64,000 nucleotides of DNA from an uncultured Lacinutrix sp. (GTDB taxonomy: Bacteria > Bacteroidota > Bacteroidia > Flavobacteriales > Flavobacteriaceae). Of this stretch, positions 28,216 through 56,911 are shown piece by piece. The position numbers and the translations under genes were made by a program. How positions within the stretch are numbered: the first letter of the stretch is position 1; every line of letters begins with the position of its first letter. Where the stretch lies: positions 1-64,000 of the forward strand of contig NZ_CANMRQ010000001.1 of assembly GCF_947500325.1 (NCBI RefSeq), written 5' to 3'. Below the pieces are notes generated by a model. The model was not told where the DNA came from. It worked only from the letters and a program-made list of their open reading frames with translations, and made no database searches.

Positions 28216-28229
28216 CCTATTTATATAAG

Positions 28230-28302: not shown

Positions 28303-28309
28303 ATAAAAA

Positions 28310-28381: not shown

Positions 28382-28394
28382 TTTTAAAAAAGTA

Positions 28395-28467
28395 AAGAAC
28401 GTATGAGATTCGAACTCACAACCTCAGGATTGTATGTCAAGCGCTCTTCCAGTTGAGCTAACGTTCT
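28395..28467 (-). tRNA. tRNA-like gene with disrupted anticodon stem (loop CATACAA; paralog of the tRNA-Glu unit)
   Basis: perfect acceptor AGAACGT/ACGTTCT, D GCTC/GAGC, T arm GTGAG-TTCGAAT-CTCAT; anticodon stem CTTGA/TCCTG pairs only 3 of 5. Confidence 0.4.
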
Positions 28468-28477
28468 TTACAATACT

Positions 28478-34440: not shown

Positions 34441-34558
34441 TTAATCTATGGTTTATTTCAATCCTTATTTTCGGATTAAAAATATTTGCATTACAAATGT
34501 CGAAACCTAATACGCGGTCTTTTTGCGTAGTTTATTTTTTAAGTAGGCCAACTTTAAG

Positions 34559-35105: not shown

Positions 35106-36568
<1,463 letters not shown>

Positions 36569-37154: not shown

Positions 37155-37517
37155 TTATTTTACTTTAACATTTTCAACCTTAATTGCTACATAATCATAA
37201 GTATAGCATTCGTTTACTATAGTTGCTATCCCAATTTTGCAATTAGGACAAATTTGGTTTAAAAAATCAACTGGCTCATATCCACAACAACCAAAATAGT
37301 TTTTTATTAATTTGTGGTTTATTAGTTTCGAATCTCGCCAGTTTATTAATATTCTATCGTTATGAGAGATTGATACATCTTCATGTCCTTCACTCCAAAA
37401 TCCTCTTTCTATAATTTCTTCATCTTCTTCAAAAAGAGATAAGTCTAGTTTAATTTTCTTTAATTGATTTGTAAGAGATGCATCACAATTTTTACATGTT
37501 ATAATAATTTTTTCCAT
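37155..37517 (-). CDS. small Cys-rich hypothetical protein
   Basis: CKNC...CPNC pairs; 120 aa. Confidence 0.4.
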   Translation of the reverse strand: MEKIIITCKNCDASLTNQLKKIKLDLSLFEEDEEIIERGFWSEGHEDVSISHNDRILINWRDSKLINHKLIKNYFGCCGYEPVDFLNQICPNCKIGIATIVNECYTYDYVAIKVENVKVK

Positions 37518-37527
37518 TATTTCTTAA

Positions 37528-37572
37528 TTACACTACAAATATTATAGTGTATTGCGTAATCATTTTGCGTAG
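37528..37572 (-). promoter_or_regulatory. shared operator/promoter module (second copy)
   Basis: CTACGCAAAATGATTACGCAATACACTATAATATTTGTAGTGTAA on the minus strand. Confidence 0.55.
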
Positions 37573-37577: not shown

Positions 37578-38360
37578 TTATTTTAAAGAAAAATAATTAT
37601 GTAAAGCTTTAAAAATGGATTTTACATTGGTATTTGGGTAGAACCCAGAACTGTTTATGCAATTAACTTCAACTATTTTCCATCCATTATTGGTTAAGCC
37701 TATATCCATAACAAAAGCATCAGCGATATTAAAAACAGCTATCATTTCTTTTGCAAAGGCAATGCCTTCAGGCGCTACATTTAATTCAAATAATACGTTT
37801 TCATTAAACTTATAATAACCAGCATCTACTATTTGTTTACCAACAATCCAAAGTCTAGCTTCCTTTAAAATTTCTTGTGGCTTTGAAATTTGGATAAGTG
37901 TATTTTTATTCAAATTTTCTGAAGCTTGACTTTCCAAAGCTTCGTATACATAATCAGACCAAGATGATTGATTAAAAACTTTACCCGTAAAAACCTTTGC
38001 ATCTCTATAAGGCTTAATAAATAGCTTAGAATTAGCTTTCCAATTAATCTTATCGGTCAATTTTAGAACTTGAAAATTATAATTAAGTGTATTACTCTTA
38101 TAGTGTTTAGAGTAAATTTCAAATAAGTGATTATTGCCATAAAATGAATTGGGCGACCAATCTTTATATTGTAGCGCCAAACGTGCTAATCGTACTGAAC
38201 CATAAACGAATATATCCTTACGGTTTGTTTTTAGTTCTAAATGTTTAGTTTCTTTTAGAACCTCAATAGTTTCATAAGGATAGTTTAACGTATCTAATGC
38301 TTCATATACTCTATCATGATCTGGATCTGAGTATATATTTGATTGAATTAAAAAATACAT
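37578..38360 (-). CDS. hypothetical protein, possible ATP-grasp-like C-terminal fold
   Basis: 260 aa; weak ATP-grasp-like C-terminal pattern (DIGLTNNGWKIVEVN). Confidence 0.35.
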   Translation of the reverse strand: MYFLIQSNIYSDPDHDRVYEALDTLNYPYETIEVLKETKHLELKTNRKDIFVYGSVRLARLALQYKDWSPNSFYGNNHLFEIYSKHYKSNTLNYNFQVLKLTDKINWKANSKLFIKPYRDAKVFTGKVFNQSSWSDYVYEALESQASENLNKNTLIQISKPQEILKEARLWIVGKQIVDAGYYKFNENVLFELNVAPEGIAFAKEMIAVFNIADAFVMDIGLTNNGWKIVEVNCINSSGFYPNTNVKSIFKALHNYFSLK

Positions 38361-40563: not shown

Positions 40564-40676
40564 TAGTCCAGGTGGGACTCGAACCCACGACACACGGATT
40601 ATGAATCTATACAGGAACTTTTTTTTGCTGAAGGCGAAAAGTATTTTCGTTGCTCTACCTTCTGAGCTACTGGACT
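40564..40676 (-). tRNA. aberrant tRNA-like gene (113 nt) with perfect acceptor/D/T arms but a 46-nt insertion in the variable region and a non-canonical anticodon arm
   Basis: acceptor AGTCCAG/CTGGACT, D GCTC-AGAAGGTA-GAGC, T GTGGG-TTCGAGT-CCCAC; anticodon region ACGAAAATACTTTTCGC. Confidence 0.4.
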
Positions 40677-40810: not shown

Positions 40811-41933
40811 CAAGCTTGTCACTAACGACATATTCAATCACTCCGTGGCTACGATTAAAAGTCTTTTACCACAGCTCTTCCTTTTAAGCTAAAGAGGCCT
40901 AATATTTTAAAAAGCGTTCTGAGAATACCTCCGCTTATAAACAAGCTTTCCTAGAATTATAGTTTACACTTTCTCTAGTTTTCCACGTGCTTCTTATTGC
41001 TTAGAGAATTACGTACTTGTTCGATGCCTTAATACATTACAACTGTTCGGCAACTTAGACTTGACTTGCATAGTGACTTTTGTCACGCTTTGCAATTACA
41101 AGGGTTGGCTCCCTCACCATTTATAAGCGTCCTCTTTTGAGGCGGCTTATTAGAATGTTCACCGCAAGACAAAGGTTTGCGACCTCCATCTCCCCATATA
41201 TTACAATGGGTTTAGGCAACTACTAACTGCTGTAATGTTCGAAGTCTTTTGCTTTTTACTCACCAACTGAGCAGTATCAAATTATGGTTTAGATACTAGG
41301 AATCGAACCTAGAAATAAAGTTTTGACCTTGGAAAAGGGCTTCGAAAATGGCTTCGTAGATTTTAGCCTACAAAATACCAACCTTTTCCATGCGTGTTTC
41401 CCAACACACCGTATGTTTAGCTACCGAATAGTTTCCTATCGGGTACCTATAATACTGCAATACGCTCCGTTAAATTGGATGATCTATACGTAACCTATTA
41501 CTACAACTTTTCCTGTTAATGTCTCCATTTCAAGCCTAATTAAATGTTAGCTATAAACCCTTATTTACCTCAGCGGTTGCCCCTTGTAAATAGAAATTTA
41601 TGTTAGTTGCTTGCTTACCTGTACTATACTCAAAAGAATACAGTCTCCATTTGCAGTGTCTGCAAATAGATTTATCCTTGTTACCAAGTTTATCTATGGA
41701 CGATAAGCCGCCCCATTATTTATAATAAATAATGATTTCTTTATATATAGAAGCTATAAATTTTCAGCTTCTTTTAATTTCAATGAACGTTTTTATTAAA
41801 CTCCACCAGCTTCAAAATCTGGTGGAGTACTACTTATAAAGTCTGATTCCAAAAGACTTTTAATTAATTACTCTGCAAATATTTTACACTATTACGCAAT
41901 GTTTTTGCGTAGTTAAAATGATTTATGAAATTT
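40811..41933 (-). ncRNA. 1.1-kb ORF-free, GC-enriched, hairpin-rich block; candidate large structured RNA (strand uncertain), containing a tRNA-like T-arm/acceptor with encoded CCA near 41285-41318
   Basis: no ORF of 60 aa or more in six frames inside a gene-dense island; local GC visibly above flanks; many imperfect hairpins. Confidence 0.3.
41866..41906 (-). promoter_or_regulatory. shared operator/promoter module (third copy) upstream of RNA ligase
   Basis: ACTACGCAAAAACATTGCGTAATAGTGTAAAATATTTGCAG on the minus strand. Confidence 0.5.
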
Positions 41934-42929
41934 TCAATAAAGCTGTAAAATTTCTTGCCTAATAAGCTTAGCAGAGCATTGATTAAGTTGTTTTGTTAAT
42001 CGTTTTTGTTCTACTTTTTCAAGCAATTGAAACGATGTTCCAAATTCTTTTGTGAAATCTTCAAAAGCATCTTTAGAAAGAAAACCAATTAATTTACCAA
42101 TTTGGCAACTGTCTAAATTACTTTCTTTACTCATTACATTTGCCAAACGGTTTGGGTTGATATAACGCTCTAATTCAACCTGTAATAGATTAGCTTCTTT
42201 AGAAAGCTCAATTTGTAATACTGTTTTAGAATTGGCTTTGCTTTTTTCACTCCATTTCGCATTTTTATTTTTAATAATAACTCGATTTCCATTTGGTAAA
42301 AAATGAGGCTCTACAGGTTTAATAACTACACCTTCACAAATATTATCTTTAATTTCAGGTAGTTTTAACCATTTAGGAATTTTGCTTTCAAATGTATTTG
42401 AATACTCTAATGATTCTTTTAATTGACCTCTAAATAATGTTTTTGCATAGAAAAACCCATGTGCTTCTAATAATTGATTTACTTCAATTACATTTAGATA
42501 ATATGACTGGTTAAGCATAATATCAAAAGCATAAAACCCATTATATGGTGCATAAAACACTCCTTTTTGAACCTTCATAGCTCCTCTCGCTTGTTCTATA
42601 TCTGGATAACTCCCGCCAAATAATTCACCAAATACAGTAATAGATTTTGTATCTGAATATTTCTTTTTTATTGCTTCGAAAAGTAATAGCATTTTAGTGT
42701 AATACATCTCTTTAATTAAGGTATGATTGTAAAATGAATCTGAATCTTTTAAAAGACTTGTACGTTTTGCTGATTTTAAATCTTTACCATTAGTAATTAA
42801 ACTAAAATTTGCTCCATGCACTTTTTCCTGTACAACAAAATCATTATTGTTTACGGTAGCTATTGCTACACGTTCTATGAATTCTGTTCTATATGAGTTT
42901 TCAATTGAATTGTATTTTTTAAATTCCAT
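41934..42929 (-). CDS. RNA ligase, T4 Rnl2 family
   Basis: near-colinear with T4 Rnl2: FKKYxSxEN, motif I EKVHGANFSLI, EGVVIKP, NGNRVIIKNKNAKWSEK; 331 aa. Confidence 0.85.
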   Translation of the reverse strand: MEFKKYNSIENSYRTEFIERVAIATVNNNDFVVQEKVHGANFSLITNGKDLKSAKRTSLLKDSDSFYNHTLIKEMYYTKMLLLFEAIKKKYSDTKSITVFGELFGGSYPDIEQARGAMKVQKGVFYAPYNGFYAFDIMLNQSYYLNVIEVNQLLEAHGFFYAKTLFRGQLKESLEYSNTFESKIPKWLKLPEIKDNICEGVVIKPVEPHFLPNGNRVIIKNKNAKWSEKSKANSKTVLQIELSKEANLLQVELERYINPNRLANVMSKESNLDSCQIGKLIGFLSKDAFEDFTKEFGTSFQLLEKVEQKRLTKQLNQCSAKLIRQEILQLY

Positions 42930-43035: not shown

Positions 43036-43521
43036 TTAAACAACCTTATCTGCACAAGATGAACTTGCAAAAGCATAAGGCTTAGCTTTAAAAACGAATC
43101 CCATTCCTAAAATGTAGCCCATAGCATCTTTAAGAGCCACATTAGATTCAAACTTAGGATCTGTATTAATATCTGCGTGAACCTCTAAAGCAACATTATA
43201 TTTATCTAGTATATCACAAATAGCATATGCTACTTCTACAGACATAGTTACTTCTTTAAGCATACGTTCTTTAATACCAATTTGTTTTGTGCCTTTATAG
43301 TTTCTCATAAACATAAAACCTCCTTTTCCTTCACGAAGCACTACAATAACTGTCGCATATTCTACGTGAGAGTTGTAGGCTTGAGAATCTGAACCTACAC
43401 AAACCTTTAGACGATGTCCAGCCTTTTGCTCTCTTATAATGGCATCTTCTAGAATACCAGTAATAGGTTGATCAAAGAATTCACCACTAAAGCTTCTCCA
43501 TTTTTGCTGTTCATTTTTCAT
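43036..43521 (-). CDS. hypothetical protein (possible RNase H-like DUF458/YkuK-type fold, tentative)
   Basis: 161 aa. Confidence 0.3.
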   Translation of the reverse strand: MKNEQQKWRSFSGEFFDQPITGILEDAIIREQKAGHRLKVCVGSDSQAYNSHVEYATVIVVLREGKGGFMFMRNYKGTKQIGIKERMLKEVTMSVEVAYAICDILDKYNVALEVHADINTDPKFESNVALKDAMGYILGMGFVFKAKPYAFASSSCADKVV

Positions 43522-43779
43522 AATATTGACCGCGAAAGCGGTTATCTTTTTAGTTAAATAATTATGTTGTGGAATAAACTGGATTAGCTCGCTAATTTTT
43601 ATTTTTTTAGCTGTGCTCGTGAATGCAAAAGCATTTTAAACCAGTATCTTCCGGGCTTAACTCAATGAATTTTATTTCATTAAATAAGATTCGTTGAATT
43701 CGTAAACTCATTTCTACCGGACGTATAGACCTACCCTTCGACTCCGCTCAGGACATGCTTTGCTATTATTCCTTTTTTG

Positions 43780-43852
43780 GGGTGATTTCGGGACTCGAAC
43801 CCTATTCTTCTCATTCACAGTGAGACATTTTACCTGTTAAACTAAAACCACC
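43780..43852 (-). tRNA. tRNA-His (GTG)
   Basis: anticodon arm TCTCA-CTGTGAA-TGAGA; T-loop TTCGAGT; C73. Confidence 0.65.
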
Positions 43853-43883
43853 ATTTTTAATTCCCATGAAAATGGGAATCTTA

Positions 43884-43958
43884 GTTCTGACAAAAGGATT
43901 TGAACCTTTATCCACAAACGTATCAGGTTTGCACTTTACCAATTAAGCTATGTCAGAA
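43884..43958 (-). tRNA. tRNA-Ile (GAT)
   Basis: acceptor TTCTGAC/GTCAGAA; anticodon arm CAAAC-CTGATAC-GTTTG; T-loop TTCAAAT. Confidence 0.7.
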
Positions 43959-43963
43959 TGTTG

Positions 43964-44034
43964 TTAACCCAATAGGACTCGAACCTATACCTCAAGAGTC
44001 AAAGTCTTGAATGCTGCCATTACACCACAGGTTA
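43964..44034 (-). tRNA. tRNA-Gln (TTG)
   Basis: U1-A72; anticodon arm CAAGA-CTTTGAC-TCTTG; T-loop TTCGAGT. Confidence 0.65.
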
Positions 44035-44040
44035 ATTTTG

Positions 44041-44113
44041 TAAGCTTAATAGGACTCGAACCCATATTCCCAGAGTCGTATTCTGGAGTGTTATCCAATT
44101 ACACCATAAGCTT
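44041..44113 (-). tRNA. tRNA-Arg (ACG)
   Basis: acceptor AAGCTTA/TAAGCTT; D GTGT/ACAC; anticodon arm CCAGA-ATACGAC-TCTGG. Confidence 0.7.
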
Positions 44114-44118
44114 ATTTG

Positions 44119-44192
44119 TATCCTACCTCGGACTCGAACCGAGAAATCACAGCGCTTAAAACTGATGCCTTTTCCAATTTGGCCAGTAGGAC
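44119..44192 (-). tRNA. class-I-shaped tRNA with Leu-type anticodon TAA (short variable arm; T27-T43 mismatch)
   Basis: acceptor GTCCTAC/GTAGGAT; anticodon loop TTTAAGC; variable GATTT; A73. Confidence 0.5.
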
Positions 44193-44197
44193 ATTAG

Positions 44198-44271
44198 TAC
44201 AGGAAGAGAGATTTGAACTCTCAAAATCTTGTTTCTAAAACAAGCGCGTATGCCAGTTCCGCCATTCCTGC
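44198..44271 (-). tRNA. class-I-shaped tRNA with Leu-type anticodon TAG (short variable arm)
   Basis: acceptor GCAGGAA/TTCCTGT; anticodon arm CTTGT-TTTAGAA-ACAAG; variable ATTTT; A73. Confidence 0.5.
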
Positions 44272-44276
44272 ATTAG

Positions 44277-44350
44277 TTGAGATGTCAGGAATCGAACCTG
44301 AACCTTTCGCCTTATGAGAGCGATGCTCTACCTAGTTAAGCTACATCTCA
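44277..44350 (-). tRNA. tRNA with CAT anticodon (Met elongator or Ile-lysidine; not initiator-like)
   Basis: acceptor TGAGATG/CATCTCA; anticodon arm TCGCT-CTCATAA-GGCGA. Confidence 0.65.
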
Positions 44351-44355
44351 ATTTG

Positions 44356-44427
44356 TTGAGGCAATAGGGATCGAACCTATGACTGTCACGATGTAAGCGT
44401 GATGCTCTTCCGCTGAGCTATACCTCA
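44356..44427 (-). tRNA. tRNA-Val (TAC)
   Basis: D GCTC/GAGC; anticodon arm TCACG-CTTACAT-CGTGA; T-loop TTCGATC. Confidence 0.7.
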
Positions 44428-44432
44428 ATTTG

Positions 44433-44504
44433 TACTCTATAAGGGAATCGAACCCTTGTCTTCCGATAGAAAGTCGGATGCACTAACCACTATGCTAATA
44501 GAGC
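44433..44504 (-). tRNA. tRNA-Glu (TTC) with U at position 37
   Basis: anticodon arm TCCGA-CTTTCTA-TCGGA. Confidence 0.6.
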
Positions 44505-44510
44505 ATTTTG

Positions 44511-44582
44511 CGGTTCATACGAGAGTCGAACTCGTATCTCCCGAGAGACAGTCGGGAAGGATAGCCATTACCCCAATGAACC
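44511..44582 (-). tRNA. tRNA-Asp (GTC) with U at position 37, G73
   Basis: acceptor GGTTCAT/ATGAACC; anticodon arm CCCGA-CTGTCTC-TCGGG. Confidence 0.6.
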
Positions 44583-44589
44583 TTTAAAA

Positions 44590-44743
44590 ATTGAAGCTGA
44601 AATCGAAGTCGAACCTGAACTTATATAGCTTCGTTTTTATCTTCATTTTGTACATCTACCTGGATTAGTTCGTATCACACATATTTTTTTAAATGAGTGA
44701 GCTAAATCTTTAGTGCTATCCATTACACCATAAATGCTAATTG
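44590..44743 (-). pseudogene. decayed tRNA remnant(s): intact-looking 5' half (GCATTTA-TG-GTGT-AATGGATA-GCAC) with degenerate anticodon/T region and an unrelated GAAGCT...AGCTTC hairpin
   Basis: 5' half resembles the Arg/Gln genes of the array; no complete cloverleaf can be drawn. Confidence 0.35.
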
Positions 44744-44826
44744 TGGAAGTAGTAGGACTCGAACCTACATGCTCCGAAGAGACCAGATTTACAGTCTGGC
44801 GAGCCAACCAATTGCTCAATACTTCC
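44744..44826 (-). tRNA. tRNA-Tyr (GTA), type II with 14-nt variable arm
   Basis: acceptor GGAAGTA/TACTTCC; anticodon arm CCAGA-CTGTAAA-TCTGG. Confidence 0.7.
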
Positions 44827-44920
44827 AATTTTGAGACAAGGATGAGATTGTTACACGTTCTCATCAAGTCACAAATTGAATGTCACATTTTTAAACAGGT
44901 TTAAAATGTTTTCATCATTG

Positions 44921-44993
44921 AGACAAGGATGAGATTCGAACTCATAAAAAACAGTTTTGCAGACTGTTACTTTAACCATTCAGCCACCTTGTC
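44921..44993 (-). tRNA. tRNA-Cys (GCA), second copy
   Basis: acceptor GACAAGG/CCTTGTC; anticodon arm ACAGT-CTGCAAA-ACTGT; preceded by a 19-bp direct repeat of its own 3' end. Confidence 0.6.
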
Positions 44994-44997
44994 TTTG

Positions 44998-45070
44998 CGA
45001 TAGTGATAGGATTCGAACCTATAACCAAGGACTTAACAGATCCACGCTCTGCCATTGAGCTACACTATCA
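44998..45070 (-). tRNA. tRNA-Asn (GTT), G73
   Basis: acceptor GATAGTG/CACTATC; anticodon loop CTGTTAA. Confidence 0.65.
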
Positions 45071-45075
45071 TTTTG

Positions 45076-45148
45076 AGGAGTTACGGAGACTTGCACTCCA
45101 TTCTGCACATTGCAAACGTGCTGTTTTGGCTTGGTAAACTATAACCCC
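45076..45148 (-). tRNA. tRNA-Ala (TGC) with G3:U70 identity pair and unusual T-loop TGCAAGT
   Basis: acceptor GGGGTTA/TAACTCC; anticodon arm GCACG-TTTGCAA-TGTGC. Confidence 0.6.
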
Positions 45149-45159
45149 ATAATTTTTTG

Positions 45160-45246
45160 CGGAGAGCAAAGGAATCGAACCTTCACCGCCATAAAGCGGA
45201 CTTGTTTAGCAGACAAGCGCAACAAACCAGTATTTGCCTACTCTCC
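45160..45246 (-). tRNA. tRNA-Ser (GCT), type II
   Basis: anticodon arm CTTGT-CTGCTAA-ACAAG; long variable arm; G73. Confidence 0.65.
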
Positions 45247-45259
45247 ATTTATTTATATC

Positions 45260-45333
45260 GTCTAAGAGACAGGATTCGAACCTGCAACCTCTCGCTTCCA
45301 AAGCGAGTAAACTATCCATCGTTCTCCTCTTAG
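45260..45333 (-). tRNA. tRNA-Pro (TGG), C1-G72, A73
   Basis: acceptor CTAAGAG/CTCTTAG; anticodon arm CTCGC-TTTGGAA-GCGAG. Confidence 0.7.
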
Positions 45334-45338
45334 TTTTG

Positions 45339-45425
45339 CGGAAGGAGTGGGAATCGAACCCACACGAGTCGTTATCTCCGAACAGTTTTCAAAACTGTGG
45401 CCACCACCTATTGGCTTGCCCTTCC
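45339..45425 (-). tRNA. tRNA-Ser (TGA), type II
   Basis: anticodon arm ACAGT-TTTGAAA-ACTGT; long variable arm; G73. Confidence 0.65.
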
Positions 45426-45434
45426 ATTTTTTTG

Positions 45435-45508
45435 TTGACGTAGTGAGAGTCGAACTCACATAACCTCGATTAAAAGTCGAGTGCTTTAGCCAGTTAAGCT
45501 ACACGTCA
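45435..45508 (-). tRNA. tRNA-Lys (TTT)
   Basis: acceptor TGACGTG/TACGTCA; D GCTT/AAGC; anticodon arm CTCGA-CTTTTAA-TCGAG. Confidence 0.7.
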
Positions 45509-46176: not shown

Positions 46177-46222
46177 TTACACTACAAATATAATTGCAGT
46201 AAGACGCAATCTTTTTACGTAG
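46177..46222 (-). promoter_or_regulatory. shared operator/promoter module (fourth copy)
   Basis: ACTACGTAAAAAGATTGCGTCTTACTGCAATTATATTTGTAGTGTAA on the minus strand. Confidence 0.5.
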
Positions 46223-47211: not shown

Positions 47212-47787
47212 TTAGTTTTGCTGTTGCAAACACCAATGTAAAATTTTTGCAATATTTTTTGCGTCATCTACACCTCGGTGATGCGTCCCTTCTAGAGGTA
47301 TTTTTAAAATATTAAGAGCGCCTTTCATCCCTACTTTTTTATTTAAATCTTTTACCCAACTAAAATGAGTTTTTACATTAATATGTTTTTGAGATAATGG
47401 GTATTCCACACCTCGCAACTTACATTGTTTTTTCATCATATTTAAATCGTAAGCGCCATAGCTTGCCCAAGTGTAATGATTAGCACTGTAATCTTCTCTT
47501 AATTTTACACAAGCTTCTTTAAAAGTAATACCTTCTTTATCTAAAAGATCTTGAGTTATTGTTGTTAGCTCTGTACAAAACGAACTTACCTTAGAGCGTT
47601 CTGGCTTAATTAATATCCCTTCACTTTTTGTAATACTTCCTGTAATTATGTCTAAAACACAAATACCTATTTCTATTATTTCATTTACTTGACCATTTGG
47701 AATTTCCCCATTCCAACACGTAGCCTCTAAATCTATTATAATTATATTTTTATTGTAATTCATTATCTTATTTTTAAAAGTAGACAA
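47212..47787 (-). CDS. DEDD-family 3'-5' exonuclease (DnaQ/KapD-like)
   Basis: Exo I motif IIIDLEATC, downstream acidic motifs, conserved H near C-terminus; 191 aa. Confidence 0.65.
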   Translation of the reverse strand: MSTFKNKIMNYNKNIIIIDLEATCWNGEIPNGQVNEIIEIGICVLDIITGSITKSEGILIKPERSKVSSFCTELTTITQDLLDKEGITFKEACVKLREDYSANHYTWASYGAYDLNMMKKQCKLRGVEYPLSQKHINVKTHFSWVKDLNKKVGMKGALNILKIPLEGTHHRGVDDAKNIAKILHWCLQQQN

Positions 47788-47813
47788 ACCTAAGCATGCC
47801 TACTTTTCTTTAT

Positions 47814-48173
47814 TTATTGAGATGCATATATTTTATCTCTCCTATCTATTTCGCCTAAGGGACTTCCTTTGAAGGTTAAAATATTTACAAACCCATTATC
47901 TTTTGTAATTAAAGAGTCTTTTTCTTTAACAGCTCCAATAGCTTTATTTCCATAATCGCCAGTTAATTTTTTGGTTGCAGGATCTAAATCTCCCCAAAGT
48001 ATATCTGGCTTACCATTATCTATTGGTTCAACGAAATAAGTAATCCCAGTAATTTTAGAACTTACTATAAATCGTCCTGTTCTATCTGTTCTTGTAAGGA
48101 ATCGCTTTAGTAATTCTTGTCGTTTCATAAAGGTTTGTTTTTTATTGTGAACTCCTACCTTCGCAGGAATCAC
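47814..48173 (-). CDS. hypothetical protein
   Basis: 119 aa. Confidence 0.4.
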   Translation of the reverse strand: MIPAKVGVHNKKQTFMKRQELLKRFLTRTDRTGRFIVSSKITGITYFVEPIDNGKPDILWGDLDPATKKLTGDYGNKAIGAVKEKDSLITKDNGFVNILTFKGSPLGEIDRRDKIYASQ

Positions 48174-48179
48174 AAATAG

Positions 48180-48707
48180 TTATTTCTTTTTTTTCTTCTT
48201 CTTTTTGGATGTTTTCTTCTTATTAGGTTTCATTTTAGTTTTCACTCTTGATATTTCTGAGTTGATATAGCTTATAAAACCATCATTATATCCAAATTGT
48301 TTTGCTTTTTTTAGCGCTTTAATTGCTTTTTTGTAGTCTTGTGTTATTTCAAAAAGCTGGCCTTGATTTTTCCAAATAACCCCTTTATCAATACCTTTTA
48401 CTGTTAAAGCAAAATCAATTAATTTTTGAGCTTCATCAAAATCGTCATTATCCAATAACACTTGAATATATCTTGGATAAACACGTTGATAATCCATTTT
48501 GTTTGCTAATGCTTCTGCATAATATTGCTTCGCCTTTTCATAATCTCCAAACTGTTCTGCTTGTAAACGCGCCATGAGATACAATGCGTAAGCATTATTA
48601 CTTTCGTAAGACAAGGCATAGTTTAGATTCTCTACAGTTTCTTCTAACTCATATGGATAAGCATCAATAGCTTTTAGCACGTAATTATTTAATAAATTAG
48701 TTTCCAT
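48180..48707 (-). CDS. TPR-like helical protein with poly-Lys C-terminus
   Basis: 175 aa; KKKKKKK tail. Confidence 0.45.
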   Translation of the reverse strand: METNLLNNYVLKAIDAYPYELEETVENLNYALSYESNNAYALYLMARLQAEQFGDYEKAKQYYAEALANKMDYQRVYPRYIQVLLDNDDFDEAQKLIDFALTVKGIDKGVIWKNQGQLFEITQDYKKAIKALKKAKQFGYNDGFISYINSEISRVKTKMKPNKKKTSKKKKKKKK

Positions 48708-48711
48708 TGTT

Positions 48712-49407
48712 TTAGTTATTTAATTCATTGCGTAAATCATTTTTTAATGCGCAACGTTGTTTTTTATATTTTTTTACAACTGTATTCTTTTTAAAATTTG
48801 AGCCTTTAAAAACTTGTATAGGATTACCTCTTTCTAATTTTAAATGGTTTCCCCATTGGTTTTTAATACTCATTTGTAAAGCTTCTAATTGTATTGCGCT
48901 TACTTTTTCTTGCAAGCGTATTTTTGCTATTTTTTTATTTTGATGTTGTGAGCGGCTATCCATAACTAATACTTGTGTTTTAGTTAGTTTATGAATAGCC
49001 CTAATAGCGGAGCTCACTTTATTTACATGCTGTCCTCCAGGTCCAGAACTACGAGTTGCTTGATATGTAATATCTTTGTCATGAATTTGAAATTCTTGAC
49101 TTTGTTCTATCTCATATAAACCCACAAACCAATTTTTACGTTTATGATTTGGCCTAAAAGCCGAAACGCCTATCCACTGTATTGTTCCTTTCCATTGACT
49201 TAAAAACACCTCTAGGTTTTCTCCTTTTAATTGAACAGTAACCGACTGCAATGTCAAATTCTCTATTCCTTTTTCCCTTTGTAATATTTTATAATCAATA
49301 GCATTGCGTTTTACAGCTTCTAAAAATTGCTTTAAAACTTGAGCCACAACCCAACAACATTCTGCTGGTCCTCGACCTGAGGTTATTTGTATTATTTTAG
49401 TATTCAT
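48712..49407 (-). CDS. prfH: peptide chain release factor homologue PrfH (GGQ-containing; RtcB2-associated)
   Basis: matches E. coli PrfH block-by-block: GPAECC, WKGTIQWIGVSAFRPNHKRKNWFVG, RSSGPGGQHVNK, ERGNP; 231 aa. Confidence 0.85.
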   Translation of the reverse strand: MNTKIIQITSGRGPAECCWVVAQVLKQFLEAVKRNAIDYKILQREKGIENLTLQSVTVQLKGENLEVFLSQWKGTIQWIGVSAFRPNHKRKNWFVGLYEIEQSQEFQIHDKDITYQATRSSGPGGQHVNKVSSAIRAIHKLTKTQVLVMDSRSQHQNKKIAKIRLQEKVSAIQLEALQMSIKNQWGNHLKLERGNPIQVFKGSNFKKNTVVKKYKKQRCALKNDLRNELNN

Positions 49408-49966
49408 TTTTATATACTTTTTCTAAAGGATTTTTAGACAGTAATACATTACCAACAGGATTTTCACCTTTCGCAATTAATTGTAACGCTGCTTTTACTG
49501 CCCAGCATTTATCGCTAGAATGAATGTTAGAGTAGAAGCTTAATAACGTTTTTGGCTCAACTAATGTCCAACCATTTACTTTTATAACTTCTACTGTCGC
49601 AGATTCAAAAAAATCTATAGTTACTCTTACTTGTTTTCCTGTTTCTAGCCAATCTATTTTCTCGTAACGTCTAAAATTTTCGTTACTTGGCATATGGTCA
49701 TATCGTGTCCACACTTTTTCGAAACCATTGGCTGCTAGTACTACCATCACTTCTGCAACATCTTTTGGATGTACAAAAATGTCTATATCCTTATGATCAT
49801 GCGCATGTTTGTATTCTGTATGGTCTTCTGGTGACATAAAATGCCATGCCCAACCTCCTGAAATAATAATCCATGCTTTTAATTTATTTAAAATGTCCAA
49901 ACCCTTTTCTATTCTATAGTTTGGCCATTGCTCTCCGTATCTTTTTATGTTATGATTTGCTCCCAT
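49397..49966 (-). CDS. hypothetical protein, possible minimal nucleotidyltransferase (GG...DIDI motif)
   Basis: ISGGWAW...DHKDIDIFV; 189 aa; overlaps prfH start. Confidence 0.35.
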   Translation of the reverse strand: MGANHNIKRYGEQWPNYRIEKGLDILNKLKAWIIISGGWAWHFMSPEDHTEYKHAHDHKDIDIFVHPKDVAEVMVVLAANGFEKVWTRYDHMPSNENFRRYEKIDWLETGKQVRVTIDFFESATVEVIKVNGWTLVEPKTLLSFYSNIHSSDKCWAVKAALQLIAKGENPVGNVLLSKNPLEKVYKNEY

Positions 49967-49992
49967 AATTCCTTTGTTTTTAAAGCAAAAAT

Positions 49993-51384
49993 TTACCTAG
50001 CCATTCTCACTATTTTTGGTGTAAACTTGCCAACAACCTCAACTAATTCTAATTGATTTTGCATCACTTTTTCAATGTTTTTATATGCCATTGGCGCCTC
50101 GTCAATACCGCCTCCAATTAAAGAGACGTCATGCTTTTGCAATTCTTTTTTTATTGCACTTTGCGTTAATGTCATTTTACATTGTCGTCTTGACAATAAA
50201 CGTCCTGCACCGTGAGATGCCGATTGTAAACTCTCTGTATTACCTAATCCTCTAACTATAAATCCTGGCGCCGTCATAGATCCAGGAATAATACCTAGCT
50301 CTCCTTTTTTTGCTGGTGTCGCTCCTTTTCTATGTACTATACATTCTTGACCATTTACGTCTTGTTTCCAAGCGAAATTGTGATGATTTTCTATTTTGGC
50401 AATTGGTCTTTCTCCTAATAATTTACCTATGCGTTTATGAATATCATCATGGCAAGCTTTTGCATAATCTCCAGCCAAATTCATAGCTAGCCAATATTCT
50501 TGTCCGTCGTGAGTATTTAAATCTAACCATGCTAAATGCTGTACATGTTTTGGTAACGGACATTGCTTTGTTGCCAAATATGTATAATGCTTAGCGATGT
50601 TAGCACCCAAACCTCTTGAACCACTATGTGATAAAACACCTAAGTATTCTCCTATTGGTAAATCCCATTCGTTATTTACATCTAGAATACTTACTTGACC
50701 AAATTCGACAAAATGATTGCCGCCACCCGAAGTTCCTAATTGCTTATAAGCTTTATCTTTTAAGCGTTTTACTAACGGAATCGTTTTAAACTCTTCACGT
50801 TCAAAAACTGGATCATCATGTTTTATTTTGTGCGTTTCGTACATCCCAAATTTGGTGTGCTCCGACAAAATATTTTCCAATTGATGCTTCTTTCCTTTTA
50901 AATAAGAGGCTTTAACGGGATATATAGTTAAACACATTCTGCACCCAATATCTACGCCTACACCATAAGGAATAACAGCATCTTTTGTTGCTAATACGCC
51001 TCCAATTGGCAATCCATATCCTACATGTGCATCTGGCATTAAAGCACCAGCAACTGCAATTGGTAGTTTTAAAGCATCGAATAATTGATACTTTGCTTTA
51101 TCGTCGATTTCATTGTCTCCATAGATTTGAAATGGTGCGCGATGTGTATTTAATACTTGCTTTTTTACCACTACAGGATCTAATAAACTTTCGGCTATTT
51201 TACCCCAAACACCATCACCTTTATAAGCCTCAGGATTTAATAATACTTTCTTTGCTTCTATTAATATTTTTTCTTTTTTTATTCTTTTCTGGTAACGATT
51301 AATTTGACCTAAAGTCACATTAATACTATTGTTTTTCGGAAAGCCTAACTTGATTAAGTCTTTCCCGCTTAATTTCTTTCCCAT
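49993..51384 (-). CDS. rtcB: RtcB-family RNA ligase, PrfH-associated paralog (RtcB2-type)
   Basis: RtcB motifs PDAHVGYG, GCRMC, GGGNHF, HSGSRGLG, HHN; 463 aa; same operon as prfH. Confidence 0.8.
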   Translation of the reverse strand: MGKKLSGKDLIKLGFPKNNSINVTLGQINRYQKRIKKEKILIEAKKVLLNPEAYKGDGVWGKIAESLLDPVVVKKQVLNTHRAPFQIYGDNEIDDKAKYQLFDALKLPIAVAGALMPDAHVGYGLPIGGVLATKDAVIPYGVGVDIGCRMCLTIYPVKASYLKGKKHQLENILSEHTKFGMYETHKIKHDDPVFEREEFKTIPLVKRLKDKAYKQLGTSGGGNHFVEFGQVSILDVNNEWDLPIGEYLGVLSHSGSRGLGANIAKHYTYLATKQCPLPKHVQHLAWLDLNTHDGQEYWLAMNLAGDYAKACHDDIHKRIGKLLGERPIAKIENHHNFAWKQDVNGQECIVHRKGATPAKKGELGIIPGSMTAPGFIVRGLGNTESLQSASHGAGRLLSRRQCKMTLTQSAIKKELQKHDVSLIGGGIDEAPMAYKNIEKVMQNQLELVEVVGKFTPKIVRMAR

Positions 51385-51432
51385 TGTTTTAGTTTTTAAT
51401 GAGAAGGTGAAAATTAAATCACCTTCTCTTTT

Positions 51433-52806
51433 TTAATTCATCATTGTTTTCAAAATGAAATACATAATCCAAAAGATTATTTTCAATACCAAAGTAGAAT
51501 CATAATTTTGCTTCTCAGTCATTTGTCTACGTTCAACTAGCCTAGCATATGCTTGCTGTTGACCATGAGCTTGGTATGGTCTTTCGTATTCCATCTCTTT
51601 TTTTCGCCTAACTTGTGAATTGTTAATCCAGTGATTTATTAATTCAACAGATTTACTGTCAGGATCTTGATTACACTTTGCTTTAGCTTGAACAATTGTA
51701 TAGCTTGGTAATTCTATTTCTAAAGTAACCAAGCGTTTCATTGGTTTACCTTCAATTTCTTGTCTTAAAGAAAAAATTGAACACCTTCCTTCATCACAAT
51801 CGTCATCGTATTCAGAAACACAGTGTTGCATTTCATTTCCTTCATCATAAAGCTCCCCTGAACTTAAAAGCTCTTCAGTTTTATAAATAACTTTTTTATT
51901 ATCTAAAGTTTCTTCAAAGTATAAAGGCTTAATTCCTGATGAGCTCCAAGAAAATTCCTCCCCTTTTTCTTTTAAGTAAACACTACGATGCCATTCTTGC
52001 GTTTGATTCAACAATGAGCTGAATGTTCTATTTTTCATTGAAAGCGACTGATTATCACGATATTTATATGCTAAATAATCAACAACTTCATCTAATTCAT
52101 TAACATTTAAATTTTCTTCTTTTGAAAAAAACTGAACAACTGATGCCCAAAAACATTCTTGCTCTTCTCTTATAATTGATAACCTTGAAAATGCAATCAT
52201 TTTAGAGGTTTTTGTTGAAGCTCCATAACCTAATGCTTGTGCGTAACGTAAAGCTTCATTAACCGACAAAAATGAAGGAGCATTTCTAAACTCATGCGCC
52301 ATTTTATCTGTTAGCTTTATTGGCATATTAGATAAGCTTTTTACACTTTTTCCTTTTCCCAACTGAACGTACCAAAACATGTGTTTTTTTTCACTTATAT
52401 AAAATGAGTTTTCTAAAAACGTTGGTGTTACATATAATGCAAAACAGTGTTTTATTACTGCGCTTAGTTGTTTTTCTTCTTGCAAACATTCGTTTTGCCA
52501 ATCTTCAATATTTCTTACTATTTTATTACCAAAACCACTTATATTATGAAGAACACTAACACTGTTATAATTTCTTAATAATGCATAACACTTTTGGTTG
52601 TACAAGTGAATTAATAACCTCTTAAAAGTTTCTCTTTTCCATGTGTATTTTCTCTTGCTGGTTTTAGAAAAAAATTCACGAAGCATTGATTCTATAGAGC
52701 CTTTATAACGAGTAGGCTTATTATTTTCGTTATATATTTTTTCAACTAATTTTATATAACTCCCTTTATGTAAGTGTTTGTTCTCTACATTCTTATTTGT
52801 TTTCAT
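51433..52806 (-). CDS. hypothetical protein, possibly PcfJ-like (tentative)
   Basis: 457 aa; C-terminal MQHCVSEY...C.EGRCSIF Cys/His cluster. Confidence 0.35.
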   Translation of the reverse strand: MKTNKNVENKHLHKGSYIKLVEKIYNENNKPTRYKGSIESMLREFFSKTSKRKYTWKRETFKRLLIHLYNQKCYALLRNYNSVSVLHNISGFGNKIVRNIEDWQNECLQEEKQLSAVIKHCFALYVTPTFLENSFYISEKKHMFWYVQLGKGKSVKSLSNMPIKLTDKMAHEFRNAPSFLSVNEALRYAQALGYGASTKTSKMIAFSRLSIIREEQECFWASVVQFFSKEENLNVNELDEVVDYLAYKYRDNQSLSMKNRTFSSLLNQTQEWHRSVYLKEKGEEFSWSSSGIKPLYFEETLDNKKVIYKTEELLSSGELYDEGNEMQHCVSEYDDDCDEGRCSIFSLRQEIEGKPMKRLVTLEIELPSYTIVQAKAKCNQDPDSKSVELINHWINNSQVRRKKEMEYERPYQAHGQQQAYARLVERRQMTEKQNYDSTLVLKIIFWIMYFILKTMMN

Positions 52807-53261
52807 TTTAAAGTTCTTTACTAGATTATTTTCTATGTAAAGCCACTCAAATTTTTAATACACATTGTTAAATTGTATGCATTTATAATCATATCTTAAT
52901 TTGGCTTTTACTATTTAATGAGAAGCTGCATTTTATATTAGCTTTCGTTTCAACATCCCTTAAAAGGGTTCACTTCGAACAATTGATATCCGGAATTTTT
53001 AAGCCTAAACTACTTTTGAAAAAAAGGCATACAAAAAAGTCCGAAACTTTTGGCTTCGGACTCTTTGTATGATAAAAATAGATCTCTATTTATCTGGAAA
53101 GAAGTCTCGAAGCGAGTATACTAAAGAACCTAGTTCTTCAATTATACTTTTGTTTACATTGGTATTAAACATTTTACTTCGTTTTAATATTTATTTTGTT
53201 GCAGTATTGCGGTGCAAATATAGAATGTAATTTTTGAAAAATCCAAATAAAAAATAAAATT

Positions 53262-53447
53262 AATTTGCTGAAAATCAATTAGTTAAATTGATTTTAGGCA
53301 ATAGAATTCCTGCCCGAATTTCTTCAGATATGTAATTCCTTGACAGTGTGCTATGTAATTAATCAATACACAATTTTTAGGCATTTACAGGTTTTTATTT
53401 TTTTTATAAAAAAAAAGCGTCCAAATTAAATTATTTGGACGCTTTCA
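53262..53447 (-). repeat. repeat block 2, paralogous to 45795-45992
   Basis: TTTTAGGCAATAGAATTCCTGCCCG core and GCGTCCAAATAATTTAATTTGGACGC hairpin. Confidence 0.5.
53409..53447 (-). terminator. rho-independent terminator for the minus-strand gene 53615-54676
   Basis: minus strand: GCGTCCAAATAATTTAATTTGGACGC followed by T9. Confidence 0.6.
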
Positions 53448-53614
53448 CTATTTTTTATTTATATATACCTACTAAATATATCTACAATAGCGCAATTTTG
53501 CGTCCTTATTATGTGATTTAAATAGATTCATATAGGTGTGTTTATTTTTTTATGCTGTACAAATATGTGAATTTTATTTGAAATATTCACAATAAGTATA
53601 AATGTATTTATTTT

Positions 53615-54676: not shown

Positions 54677-54856
54677 ATTATATTGTTTTTTAATGAGTTA
54701 AATCAAAAATAAATGTTTTACTATATTCATATTATCCCCAGTATCGGGTATTTTAGTCTCTTTTATTTAAGTTTCACTTTTATTTTTTAATATTTACTAC
54801 GCAAATTATTTACGTTGTAAGTATTATTTTTAAATTTTGTAATAAAGAGAATTAAC

Positions 54857-56578
54857 ATGGCAGTAAATAAAAACGCATTAATTCGTTATAAAACTATAGA
54901 TAAATGTCTTCAAAATAATTTTAGACAATGGACACTTAATGACTTAATAGAAGCTGTATCTGATGCGCTTTACGAATACGAAGGCAAAGATATAGATGTA
55001 AGTAAACGTACAGTGCAATTAGACCTTCAAATGATGCGTAGCGATAAACTAGGTTATAATGCTCCTATTGTGGTTTATAATAGAAAATATTATAAGTACG
55101 ATGATGACAATTATAGTATTACAAATAGCCCTATTTCTAATCAAGATTTAACAAAATTATCTGAAGCTGTTTCTTTTTTAAAACAATTCCAAGGATTTTC
55201 CCATTTTAAAGAACTAGGAAGCATGGTTCAAAAACTAGAAGACCATGTATACACCCAAAAAACACAAGAAAAATCGTTAATTGATTTTGAAAAAAATGAA
55301 AACTTGAAAGGTCTAGAGTTTCTAGATGAATTATATCAATTTATTCTTAAAAAACAAGCTATTGAAATTACATACCAGTCTTTTAAAGCAAGACAAGAAA
55401 ATACATTTACATATTATCCTTATTTATTAAAAGAATATAGAAATCGATGGTTTGTTATTGGTAAAAGAAAGAAAAATGAAGGCATAATGAACTTAGCTTT
55501 AGACCGCATTATTTCAATTAATAAAAGCTCTAAAACTTATACAATTGACAGCTCTTTTGATTCTAAAACATACTATAAAGATGTTATAGGCGTATCTGTA
55601 AGTCCAAATATGGCTGCAGAAGATGTTGTGTTTTATGTTAACCATAAACACGCTCCTTATGTTATTACAAAACCTTTTCATAAATCTCAAAAAATTATAG
55701 ATCGTGATAATTATGGTGTTACTTTCTCTATGCAAGTGCAACTTAATTTTGAATTAGAAAAGGAAATTTTAGGGCTTGGGGAATCTATTAAAATTATAGC
55801 TCCAGAGCGTTTAAAACGGAATATTAAAGAACGTTTATATGATGCTATTGACACTTATGAAACAGAGATTAGTGATAAAAATTTACGAACTATAGCAAAA
55901 CGATTAGAATATAAAGGGTTCGGTATTTTAAATCACATATATTCAAAGCGTGATATTAGAAAACTTAAAGCACGATTTGATAGTTATATAAAACAGAACA
56001 ATGAACAAGCTTATGGTATGCGAGAAGTCTTATTAAAAATGCCTGAACTTAAGGGTATTCTTTTTAATAAAAACTTTAGAAAACTTATTAAGTCTATTGA
56101 TAAAAATGTGTTTTTAACTAAAGCTATTTATTTTGACAAATCTCCAAATGAAAATTGGTATGTTAATTGGCACCAAGATGTCCCTATTAATGTTAGTAAA
56201 AAAATAGAAACTAATAATTTCTCGTCTTGGACAAATAAAAAAGGTGTTATTAGTGTTTGTCCTCCGCAAAAAATTTCTCAGAATACTTTTTCTATGCGCA
56301 TTCATTTAGATGATACCTCCATAAAAAATGGAGCCTTAAAGGTTATTCCTGGTTCGCATAACAAGCGTTTAAAAGACGATGAGATACAATTAATAAGCTC
56401 AAATTCAATACCTTTTATATGTGAAGTTGCTTCAGGTGGTGTTCAATTATTAAAACCGTTACTTCTTCACGCTTCTTCTAAAACTACTACTCAAAAAAGG
56501 CGCCGTGTACTACATTTAGAATTTTCTTCTATTGCGTTACCAAATGGCTTAGAATATGCTGAAAAAGAAGTGTTATAA
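54857..56578 (+). CDS. HTH-WYL domain regulator fused to a PhyH-type Fe(II)/2-oxoglutarate dioxygenase domain
   Basis: N-terminal HTH (SKRTVQLDLQMM), WYL-like core YYPYLLKEYRNRWFVIG, C-terminal WHQDVP (HxD) and VIPGSH motifs; 573 aa. Confidence 0.55.
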   Translation: MAVNKNALIRYKTIDKCLQNNFRQWTLNDLIEAVSDALYEYEGKDIDVSKRTVQLDLQMMRSDKLGYNAPIVVYNRKYYKYDDDNYSITNSPISNQDLTKLSEAVSFLKQFQGFSHFKELGSMVQKLEDHVYTQKTQEKSLIDFEKNENLKGLEFLDELYQFILKKQAIEITYQSFKARQENTFTYYPYLLKEYRNRWFVIGKRKKNEGIMNLALDRIISINKSSKTYTIDSSFDSKTYYKDVIGVSVSPNMAAEDVVFYVNHKHAPYVITKPFHKSQKIIDRDNYGVTFSMQVQLNFELEKEILGLGESIKIIAPERLKRNIKERLYDAIDTYETEISDKNLRTIAKRLEYKGFGILNHIYSKRDIRKLKARFDSYIKQNNEQAYGMREVLLKMPELKGILFNKNFRKLIKSIDKNVFLTKAIYFDKSPNENWYVNWHQDVPINVSKKIETNNFSSWTNKKGVISVCPPQKISQNTFSMRIHLDDTSIKNGALKVIPGSHNKRLKDDEIQLISSNSIPFICEVASGGVQLLKPLLLHASSKTTTQKRRRVLHLEFSSIALPNGLEYAEKEVL

Positions 56579-56614: not shown

Positions 56615-56911
56615 CTATGACATTGGTAATATCTCTATTACTTTTCCATAAACATTTTTTGTCCATCCATTAATTCTACCGTGATTATTACCAATTAATA
56701 ATCCCCGTTTGTTATTTTTCCCTTTTACAAGGTGTGTAAAACAATTGCCTCTCACTTTACAGTAAACAATATCTCCTGTTTCACAATCTTCCCATTGAAT
56801 AGGTTTAAGCTTAACAGGTTGCTTTGACTTAAGTCGTGGTAGCATAGAATTTCCTGGTTCTTTTGAAATAATGGTCTCGCCATTTTGTAGTTTTTGAATT
56901 TTCCAATTCAT
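56615..56911 (-). CDS. S24-family (LexA/UmuD-like) peptidase domain protein
   Basis: GNSMLP serine motif and downstream KG.. lysine region; 98 aa. Confidence 0.5.
   Translation of the reverse strand: MNWKIQKLQNGETIISKEPGNSMLPRLKSKQPVKLKPIQWEDCETGDIVYCKVRGNCFTHLVKGKNNKRGLLIGNNHGRINGWTKNVYGKVIEILPMS

Follow-up and report, generated by a model that had tools for sequence, protein, structure and literature searches.

A WYL transcription factor fused to a PhyH-type oxygenase and its predicted RNA-repair regulon in Lacinutrix and other Bacteroidota

This study concerns a protein of 573 amino acids (aa) encoded in a stretch of 64,000 nucleotides (nt) from an uncultured Lacinutrix sp. of the Flavobacteriaceae (positions 1 to 64,000 of contig NZ_CANMRQ010000001.1, RefSeq assembly GCF_947500325.1). 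This stretch, hereafter the window, has a low GC content of about 30%. The gene lies on the plus strand at 54857–56578 (stop codon included) and is an uninterrupted open reading frame (ORF) with an ATG start. Its product joins a winged helix-turn-helix (wHTH), a WYL domain and a WCX domain to a PhyH-type Fe(II)/2-oxoglutarate (2OG) oxygenase. We conclude with high confidence that this is a genuine, bifunctional-looking protein and that its N-terminal part is the transcription factor of a regulon of RNA-repair, tRNA and noncoding RNA (ncRNA) genes. On balance we favor the view that it is a one-component, damage-responsive factor of the PafBC/DriD type, which would control an RNA-repair and translation-rescue regulon of Bacteroidota and carry an attached enzyme for an RNA-related substrate.

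Architecture and fold of the fusion protein

The WYL domain was recognized by Pfam at residues 154–220 (55316–55516; PF13280, E = 1.7e-11, 44.4 bits against a cut-off of 21.8) and is predicted to sense a nucleic-acid or nucleotide ligand. It is followed by the WCX domain at residues 255–327 (55619–55837; PF25583, E = 2e-7, 31.7 bits against a cut-off of 23.9). None of the Pfam HTH models fired on the N-terminus. The AlphaFold2 (AF2) model, which was built with 50 orthologues, and Foldseek delineated a wHTH at residues ~1–92 (54857–55132), composed of helices 5–19, 27–42 and 50–61 and a β-hairpin (wing) at 71–81, and this is the predicted DNA-binding module. The C-terminal PhyH-fold oxygenase domain spans residues ~340–573 (55874–56575), of which residues 422–551 matched the Pfam PhyH model above its curated cut-off (E = 7.7e-10).

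The predicted local distance difference test score (pLDDT) of the whole chain was 83.7. When the C-terminal domain was modeled by itself, its pLDDT was 92.2 and its predicted template modeling score (pTM) 0.90. A Foldseek search of the PDB matched residues ~1–340 to DriD and PafBC, including their RNA polymerase (RNAP) complexes, over 340–350 columns (E values from 9e-14 to 3e-11), and residues ~340–573 to PhyH-family oxygenases. A comparison of the family profile with the WYL-WCX part of DriD gave a weak but specific match (E = 0.002). The protein thus has a WYL domain, a WCX domain after it, an N-terminal winged HTH and, as described below, a putative operator at its own and its target promoters, which are the features of wHTH-WYL-WCX regulators of the PafBC/DriD/YafY type. 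A PhyH-type double-stranded β-helix (DSBH), an HxD...H triad and a 2OG-binding basic residue place the C-terminal half in the PhyH family (PF05721). A first-pass annotation of the sequence had described an HTH-WYL regulator covalently fused to a PhyH-type oxygenase; Pfam, the orthologues and the fold show this combination to be real and conserved, and the structural modeling which that annotation had proposed supports both the PafBC/DriD half and the PhyH half.

The same annotation had called the regulator "PafBC/defence-type". The Foldseek matches agree with the former term, but the latter did not hold: the PADLOC scan of the fusion protein returned only generic CRISPR-associated WYL models (5e-23 for the generic WYL model over the WYL region) together with weak partial matches to Cas3c and DpdJ across the WYL region, neither the BrxR nor the CapW model matched, and the neighbors are RNA-repair genes. 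A defence-type WYL regulator was rejected on these grounds. An AlkB-type nucleic-acid demethylase, which has an AlkB-type DSBH with a nucleotide-recognition lid, was rejected on fold scores. No CARF, AAA+ or sigma54-activator domain was found in Pfam and NCBIfam scans of the fusion protein.

Among the 120 best homologues (60–87% identity, ~573 aa), 119 carried both PhyH and WYL, and all but three of these WCX as well; the sole exception was a truncated entry of 437 aa. The fusion is kept at 51–87% identity over several Bacteroidota orders and is intact in the complete genomes of Olleya sp. YS (CP121685.1) and Psychroserpens sp. NJDZ02 (CP039451.1). An identical protein is recorded at NCBI as "WYL domain-containing protein [uncultured Lacinutrix sp.]". 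More than 100 independent sequences of the same length, the complete isolate genomes and the continuous helical linker that joins the two halves in the AF2 model leave virtually no chance that a frameshift or misassembly has created the fusion; the check for joined genes suggested at the outset was accordingly negative.

Active site and relatives of the oxygenase domain

The HxD part of the facial triad, H439-Q-D441 (56171–56179, plus strand), is invariant in the 50 aligned orthologues, as are H538, S540 and R549. H538, within the sequence LLHAS, aligns with the distal Fe-ligand His of AviO1 (4xaa) and human PhyH (2a1x), and R549, 11 residues further on, aligns with the 2OG-binding Arg of these enzymes, the ligand of the 2OG C5-carboxylate (H538 to R549, 56468–56503, plus strand). 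The facial triad proposed earlier was right in its HxD, the H439 and D441 of WHQD, but not in its third member, the His of VIPGSH. That residue, H501, is only ~90% conserved, is replaced by Gln in P0092, P0116 and L006, and is matched in the alignment by a PGSH motif of AviO1 that supplies no ligand, and for these reasons it is not an iron ligand; the distal ligand is H538. Twenty-seven of the 38 PhyH-fused proteins derived from genomes, with H439 and D441, also keep W434, W438, R481, H483, D485, H538, S540, R549, R550 and H553. Because the Fe(II)/2OG site is complete, we have moderate confidence that the domain is a working oxygenase, predicted to be catalytically competent in this genome.

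When residues 335–573 were searched against 1.84 billion cluster representatives, 2406 clusters matched, including 188 at E ≤ 1e-30. The majority are stand-alone proteins from Bacteroidota, 230–250 aa long, that are 35–49% identical to the domain and possess the same motif set. In the five genomes inspected, the surroundings of stand-alone homologues were variable, often arrays of small orphan genes, and no RNA-repair genes were present nearby. Since these proteins share the motifs and occur in contexts unrelated to RNA repair, the fused domain appears to have been recruited from a free-standing enzyme family.

Regulator family and its linkage to RtcB

A scan of one genome per species yielded at least 589 relatives, of which the best 80 loci were examined; with the window this gives 81 loci. 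About half of the best 80 encode the full fusion. The remainder match residues 1–335 alone, at 55–62% identity, and encode stand-alone regulators of ~338 aa. All ORFs of the 81 loci were clustered together, and the recurring families were confirmed by Pfam. Of the 81 loci, 52 contain RtcB, in most cases with its gene and the regulator gene in divergent orientation. Recurring between or near the two were Band_7/SPFH proteins, TROVE-vWA (Ro60) proteins, pairs of RlaP nucleotidyltransferases, a PrfH-like protein with an RF-1 domain, and TPR proteins, which like RtcB are standard parts of bacterial RNA-repair systems. The recurrence of RtcB and these components indicates that the wHTH-WYL-WCX family is an RtcB-linked regulator of Bacteroidota and therefore the functional counterpart of RtcR, a regulator that to our knowledge is absent from this phylum. 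On a neighbor-joining tree of the N-terminal module (without support values), fused, decayed and unfused forms were interleaved.

The same scaffold has acquired a second enzyme. In three independent but closely related Sphingobacteriia-like assemblies only, Tpt1/KptA RNA 2′-phosphotransferase (Pfam E = 1.9e-47) is fused at the same point after WCX: L060 8001–9608, L075 1750–3354 and a truncated copy, L070 8001–9320. RtcB adjoins the fusion gene in L075 and L070, and the metagenome-assembled genome (MAG) of L060 also holds an unfused paralogue that adjoins RtcB (L068). The N-terminal module of these proteins is 55–56% identical to that of the window protein; their enzyme differs from PhyH in being NAD+-dependent and is known to act on RNA. 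No canonical operator of the kind described in the next section was seen in the examined stretches of L060 and L075. This sister fusion suggests that the C-terminal position may host enzymes acting on RNA ends or RNA-derived molecules. The first-pass annotation had suggested that the regulator either modifies its ligand or couples transcription to O2/2OG, and the sister fusion favors the former.

Forms without the sensor domains also occur. In P0159 (L090 587–1750) and P0166 (L089 6001–7258, in the complete genome CP040106.1), the wHTH of the family is joined straight to the PhyH domain with neither WYL nor WCX. P0159 has lost the metal ligands (HQN, and Gln for the distal His); the other protein keeps the triad. 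At the P0166 locus (L089) the called gene does not translate exactly to the query; the operator, at about −60, is degenerate, and RtcB is not found in the vicinity. The WYL-less and decayed forms suggest that the PhyH domain can also be a ligand-binding or structural input, possibly one that reports Fe, O2 or 2OG, and so leave room for a coupling of transcription to O2/2OG.

Operator and promoter architecture

Motif discovery by k-mer counts on the 250 nt upstream of the regulator genes yielded a predicted operator common to fused and unfused forms, the 21-bp palindrome CTRCGCAR-N5-TTGCGYAG. It was present in 55 of 79 loci (at least 12 of the 14 specified positions), always with a spacer of 5 nt, and the regulator-proximal site lies at about −58, usually 57–62 nt ahead of the start codon. 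With two mismatches or fewer, there were 110 sites in the 1.19 Mb of the 81 loci; the genes downstream were the regulator (61), RtcB (39), Ro60 (11), the uncharacterised family c8 (5) and RlaP (4).

The site, whose spacer has the consensus TCTTT, is asymmetric, and in 98 of 109 sites the tetranucleotide TTTG follows 12–13 nt beyond the operator, always toward the repair genes. The −7 box of Bacteroidetes promoters is TAnnTTTG. The phased TTTG corresponds to this box, 8 nt from the operator, whose center falls near −33; a −33 TTTG at the usual spacing was not present at the operator promoters. The promoters of PafBC have the same two-part design, in which a factor-specific element stands at a fixed distance from the −10 element and a −35 element is absent (PMC8635444). 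This likeness in promoter geometry and the structural match to DriD and PafBC modestly favor activation, in which the regulator would replace the −33 contact, over repression.

The predicted regulon in the window

Six places in the window carry the operator pattern. They amount to 12 strand-matches, where 0.61 were expected, and none of 100 shuffles reached this count. A composite module, defined as the operator with up to five mismatches plus the phased TTTG, was found exactly five times, in each case reading on the minus strand and within an RNA-repair island of roughly 20 kb. The module at 46202–46222 (TATATTTG) reads into a tRNA array, and that at 41892–41912, which is orthologous to site 8509 of the Olleya sp. 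YS locus (L091), reads into a GOLLD-like RNA. A third (37552–37572) stands ahead of small ORFs at 37155–37517 and 36574–37038, and a fourth (36548–36568) is directly upstream of the second RtcB gene (35106–36506, minus strand; Pfam RtcB, 4e-37), a predicted regulon member. The fifth, at 34510–34530, precedes a small ORF (33745–34440), a CCA-adding/polyA-polymerase-HD enzyme (32325–33779), two RlaP genes (30534–32335) and the genes downstream of them, all on the minus strand.

The sixth place is the regulator's own upstream region, where an operator copy with two mismatches (CTACGCAAATTATTTACGTTG, 54797–54817) lies 60 nt ahead of the start codon and is likely autoregulatory. It has no divergent −7 box, and the usual divergent partner is replaced here by a secreted protein of 353 aa (53615) and a PcfJ-like gene. 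The first-pass annotation had expected the regulon among the neighbors at 56615 and 53615. The motif search found no promoter module facing either gene, and because the operator beside 53615 lacks a promoter box on that side, this proposal was rejected. Nor did the naming of 56615 as an S24 peptidase survive, as its 98-aa product matches Peptidase_S24 at E = 0.05 only, below the cut-off. This ORF (56615–56911, minus strand) has homologues (cluster c15) in three other loci, in two of which (L041 and L042) they lie between RtcB paralogues.

The RNA-repair genes of the window form a dense, one-stranded island at ~28500–52800 (minus strand). Its regulator-proximal part is an RNA/ribosome-repair block at 47212–52806 with a PcfJ-like gene (51433–52806), an RtcB paralogue (49993–51384) paired with a PrfH-like release factor (48712–49407), a 189-aa protein between these two, a TPR protein, a 119-aa protein and an RNase T-like exonuclease (47212–47787). 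Elsewhere in the island are an RNase H-like PF04308 protein (43036–43521), an Rnl2-type RNA ligase (41934–42929) and an R2K ATP-grasp protein (37578–38360), again all on the minus strand. In relatives, homologues of the window genes at 425–2673 or 7597–9786 directly flank the RtcB operon, and their islands are much shorter; most of the 10–49 kb stretch of the window would on this comparison be a lineage-specific expansion.

A DUF434/DUF5616 protein is encoded at the far end of the island (26791–27399, minus strand) and also in Olleya sp. YS (L091 1–245); it could be a conserved component of the island or could mark its boundary. Between the conserved flank and the island (21769–26658 and 16642–21218 on the plus strand, 11881–16459 on the minus strand) we noted a 1629-aa ORF, several large ORFs without a Pfam match, and a TPR-histidine kinase/response-regulator pair in a stretch of 26% GC.

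tRNA arrays and noncoding RNAs

The tRNA array at 43778–45508 (minus strand; ARAGORN and Rfam), which is predicted to belong to the regulon, holds 18 tRNA genes for 16 amino acids. One of them, tRNA-Tyr(GUA), has operator-driven orthologues in related genomes: an operator stands ahead of such a tRNA-Tyr(GUA) and Band_7 in Psychroserpens, Thalassobellus, Algibacter and Lacinutrix jangbogonensis. A Bacteroidia MAG has an array of eight tRNAs behind an operator. An Rfam scan of the 690 nt between the operator at 46202 and the first tRNA returned nothing credible. A second cluster of four tRNAs at 28143–28468 (minus strand) includes an unusual tRNA-Cys with the anticodon ACA and a tRNA-Glu(CUC). 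Together the array and the cluster resemble the stress-induced "L-arrays" of Anabaena.

The GOLLD-like giant ncRNA matched Rfam model RF02032 over model positions 1–416 of 416 (40913–41390, minus strand; 131.9 bits, E = 3.8e-36), and its counterpart in Olleya sp. YS matched the same 416 positions (L091 7420–7915, minus strand; 124.9 bits, E = 1.2e-32), both scores being below the gathering score of 150. The transcript in the window probably starts near 41870. The stretch has no ORF longer than 32 aa on the minus strand, and its fold z-score is −9.9. Just after it, at 40564–40676 (minus strand), is a 113-nt Rfam tRNA match of 48.3 bits for which ARAGORN made no call; this may represent an interrupted tRNA or an element that resembles a tRNA.

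In Olleya sp. YS the unit beside the regulator reads operator, tRNA-Pro, GOLLD-like RNA, tRNA-Tyr, YrlA-like RNA, Band_7, operator, RtcB, RNase T and two RlaP genes. The position of a GOLLD-like RNA directly behind an operator/promoter module is thus found in two genera. The YrlA-like RNA of this unit (L091 7096–7198) reached 36.8 bits (E = 1.4e-4), where the gathering score is 69. Similarly weak YrlA matches, of 35–40 bits against that gathering score, were seen behind operators and beside Band_7 or Ro60 at L001 6046–6156, L006 5543–5677 and 3774–3836, and L010 6853–6921, a gene order reminiscent of Salmonella rsr-yrlBA-rtcBA. In Psychroserpens sp. NJDZ02, the stretch from the operator at 1308 to Band_7 contains a Flavo-1 RNA match (L092 1405–1547, plus strand) that scored 41.9 bits, just under the gathering score of 42.

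Comparison with known systems

PafBC of mycobacteria and DriD of Caulobacter are activators of the DNA-damage response that share the wHTH-WYL-WCX layout and are the best structural matches of the window regulator. Their ligand is single-stranded DNA. The promoter design is also shared, with fixed spacing of the factor element to the −10 or −7 box and neither −35 nor −33. The window regulator differs from both in its predicted targets, which are RNA-repair, tRNA and ncRNA genes instead of DNA-repair genes, and in its extra C-terminal oxygenase; its operator is a 21-bp palindrome, whereas the PafBC element is half-site-like and located at −26.

In regulon content the closest parallels lie in other protein families. 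RtcR, a CARF-AAA+-HTH protein that activates rsr-yrlBA-rtcBA with sigma54 in Salmonella and E. coli, is also encoded divergently to the RtcB operon and senses damaged tRNA (PMC7790460). Its regulon resembles the one predicted here in RtcB, Ro60 and Y-RNA-like RNAs, but its CARF, AAA+ and sigma54 features are not found in the window regulator, to which it is unrelated and only a functional analogue. TrcR of Anabaena co-regulates rtcB, a slipin and a 26-tRNA L-array, a regulon that is induced by translational stress (PMC10272220; PMC8421152). The content matches that predicted here (RtcB, a Band-7/slipin protein and a long tRNA array); unlike the window regulator, however, TrcR has a ribbon-helix-helix fold with no sensor or enzyme domain, and it is a proven repressor with sites that overlap the −10 element.

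On the oxygenase side, AviO1/EvdO, SnoK/SnoN, proline hydroxylase H11, EctD, PHYHD1 and human PhyH are 14–22% identical to the window domain, which unlike them is small (~235 aa) and fused to a transcription factor. Their context is secondary or lipid metabolism, whereas here it is RNA repair.

Proposed mechanism and alternatives

In the mechanism that we envisage, a dimer of the regulator would bind the palindrome centered near −33, and the ligand of the WYL domain would be a damage signal, most probably fragments or ends of RNA. The ligand-bound regulator would then activate transcription in the manner of PafBC and DriD. The substrate of the PhyH enzyme may be linked to the signal and either derive from RNA or belong to the translation apparatus, and the enzyme would either repair that substrate or consume the inducer; our confidence in the nature of the substrate is low. 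An RNA-related substrate is proposed because the alternative fusion partner of this scaffold, Tpt1/KptA, is an RNA-end enzyme.

Several points weigh against this mechanism. DNA binding, the inducer and the choice between activation and repression are all inferred; the operator beside the regulator is degenerate in this genome; and the adjacent PcfJ/RtcB/PrfH block has no operator in 52807–53614, even at five mismatches. Because fused and unfused forms interleave on the tree, the PhyH domain would seem dispensable for core regulation. Eleven of the 38 fused proteins, the more divergent ones, have lost the catalytic triad yet keep the domain. Stand-alone homologues with the same active site sit in unrelated, variable contexts, with no operator nearby in the two loci scanned (L081 and L085), and we know of no PhyH-family member that acts on nucleic acids. 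Moreover, several characterised WYL factors, CapW and BrxR among them, are repressors. By analogy with them the operator could occlude the promoters until a ligand releases the protein, as its overlap with the −33 region would allow. Comparative genomics describes many WYL factors as negative regulators (PMC9503650), and the analogous Anabaena regulator TrcR represses. Repression nevertheless strikes us as somewhat unlikely, as a constant distance of 8 nt between operator and −7 box in 90% of sites and the lack of a −33 TTTG at the normal spacing form the activator-dependent pattern of PafBC, and the nearest structural matches, including the RNAP complexes, are the activators DriD and PafBC.

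The role of the oxygenase is less certain than that of the regulator. The boldest proposal, to which we give only a small chance, is that the domain is the first PhyH-family oxygenase to act on RNA, an RNA end or an RNA-derived nucleotide signal, built into a damage-sensing factor so that sensing and enzymatic resolution are coupled, in a factor whose regulon includes spare tRNAs and the nanocage RNA GOLLD. It might instead be a sensory input, in which Fe(II), O2 or 2OG occupancy, or turnover, gates the regulator and couples RNA repair to oxygen, iron, or oxidative or metabolic stress, much as prolyl hydroxylases sense O2. PhyH enzymes bind small molecules, PhyH is the only candidate sensor in P0159 and P0166, and the retention of the domain in decayed versions implies a non-catalytic role. 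Against this, the whole catalytic set is strictly conserved in the main clade, which argues for real chemistry on a substrate; decayed forms can bind neither Fe nor 2OG and so cannot work in that way; and the parallel Tpt1/KptA fusion is not such a sensor. We regard a sensory input as unlikely. The null hypothesis is that the oxygenase is a passenger, a housekeeping small-molecule enzyme with no allosteric or substrate link to RNA repair. The size of the stand-alone family (188 clusters at E ≤ 1e-30), its shared motif set and its contexts unrelated to RNA repair would fit this, as would the repeated loss or decay of the domain. A mere passenger seems distinctly improbable to us, given that the fusion is retained at 51–87% identity across several Bacteroidota orders with all catalytic residues, that a second, clearly RNA-directed enzyme (Tpt1) was captured at the same site, and that such fusions seldom persist so widely.

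Novelty and significance

A one-component WYL regulator of a damage response is a known kind of system. According to the Aravind laboratory, RNAs with cyclic-phosphate ends may be what WYL and CARF factors sense, and some of these factors control RNA repair (PMC9503650), so that the linkage of WYL to RNA repair as such is probably not new. The absence of a characterised example of the fusion, which the first-pass annotation had remarked on, agrees with our finding no relevant literature: we found no paper on a WYL-PhyH fusion, with the proviso that a prior description in Burroughs and Aravind 2016 (NAR 44:8525) is not excluded, and no dioxygenase is among the WYL fusions catalogued in 2014, which comprise nucleases, helicases, a nucleotidyltransferase, BRCT and TerB (Makarova et al., PMC4012209). 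As far as we have checked, the enzyme fusion, the operator/promoter architecture, and a regulon that takes in tRNA arrays and a GOLLD-like RNA are new.

The analysis identifies a regulator of RtcB-centered RNA repair in Bacteroidota whose operator and promoter architecture can be tested directly. That a sensor transcription factor has captured an enzyme twice, PhyH in one case and Tpt1/KptA in the other, points to an unexplored oxidative step in the bacterial response to RNA damage, or to a link with oxygen, iron or 2OG. The predicted regulon also joins three poorly understood things, namely long tRNA arrays, Y-RNA-like RNAs and the GOLLD giant RNA. The function of GOLLD has been unknown since 2009, and its structure has been solved. 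The cryo-EM paper calls the function unknown and notes proximity to tRNA islands, with no mention of RtcB or repair (PMC12286853), and the co-regulation of GOLLD with RNA repair predicted here appears to be unreported. If the PhyH domain does act on RNA and GOLLD does belong to the regulon, this would give GOLLD its first functional setting, in the response to RNA or translational damage.

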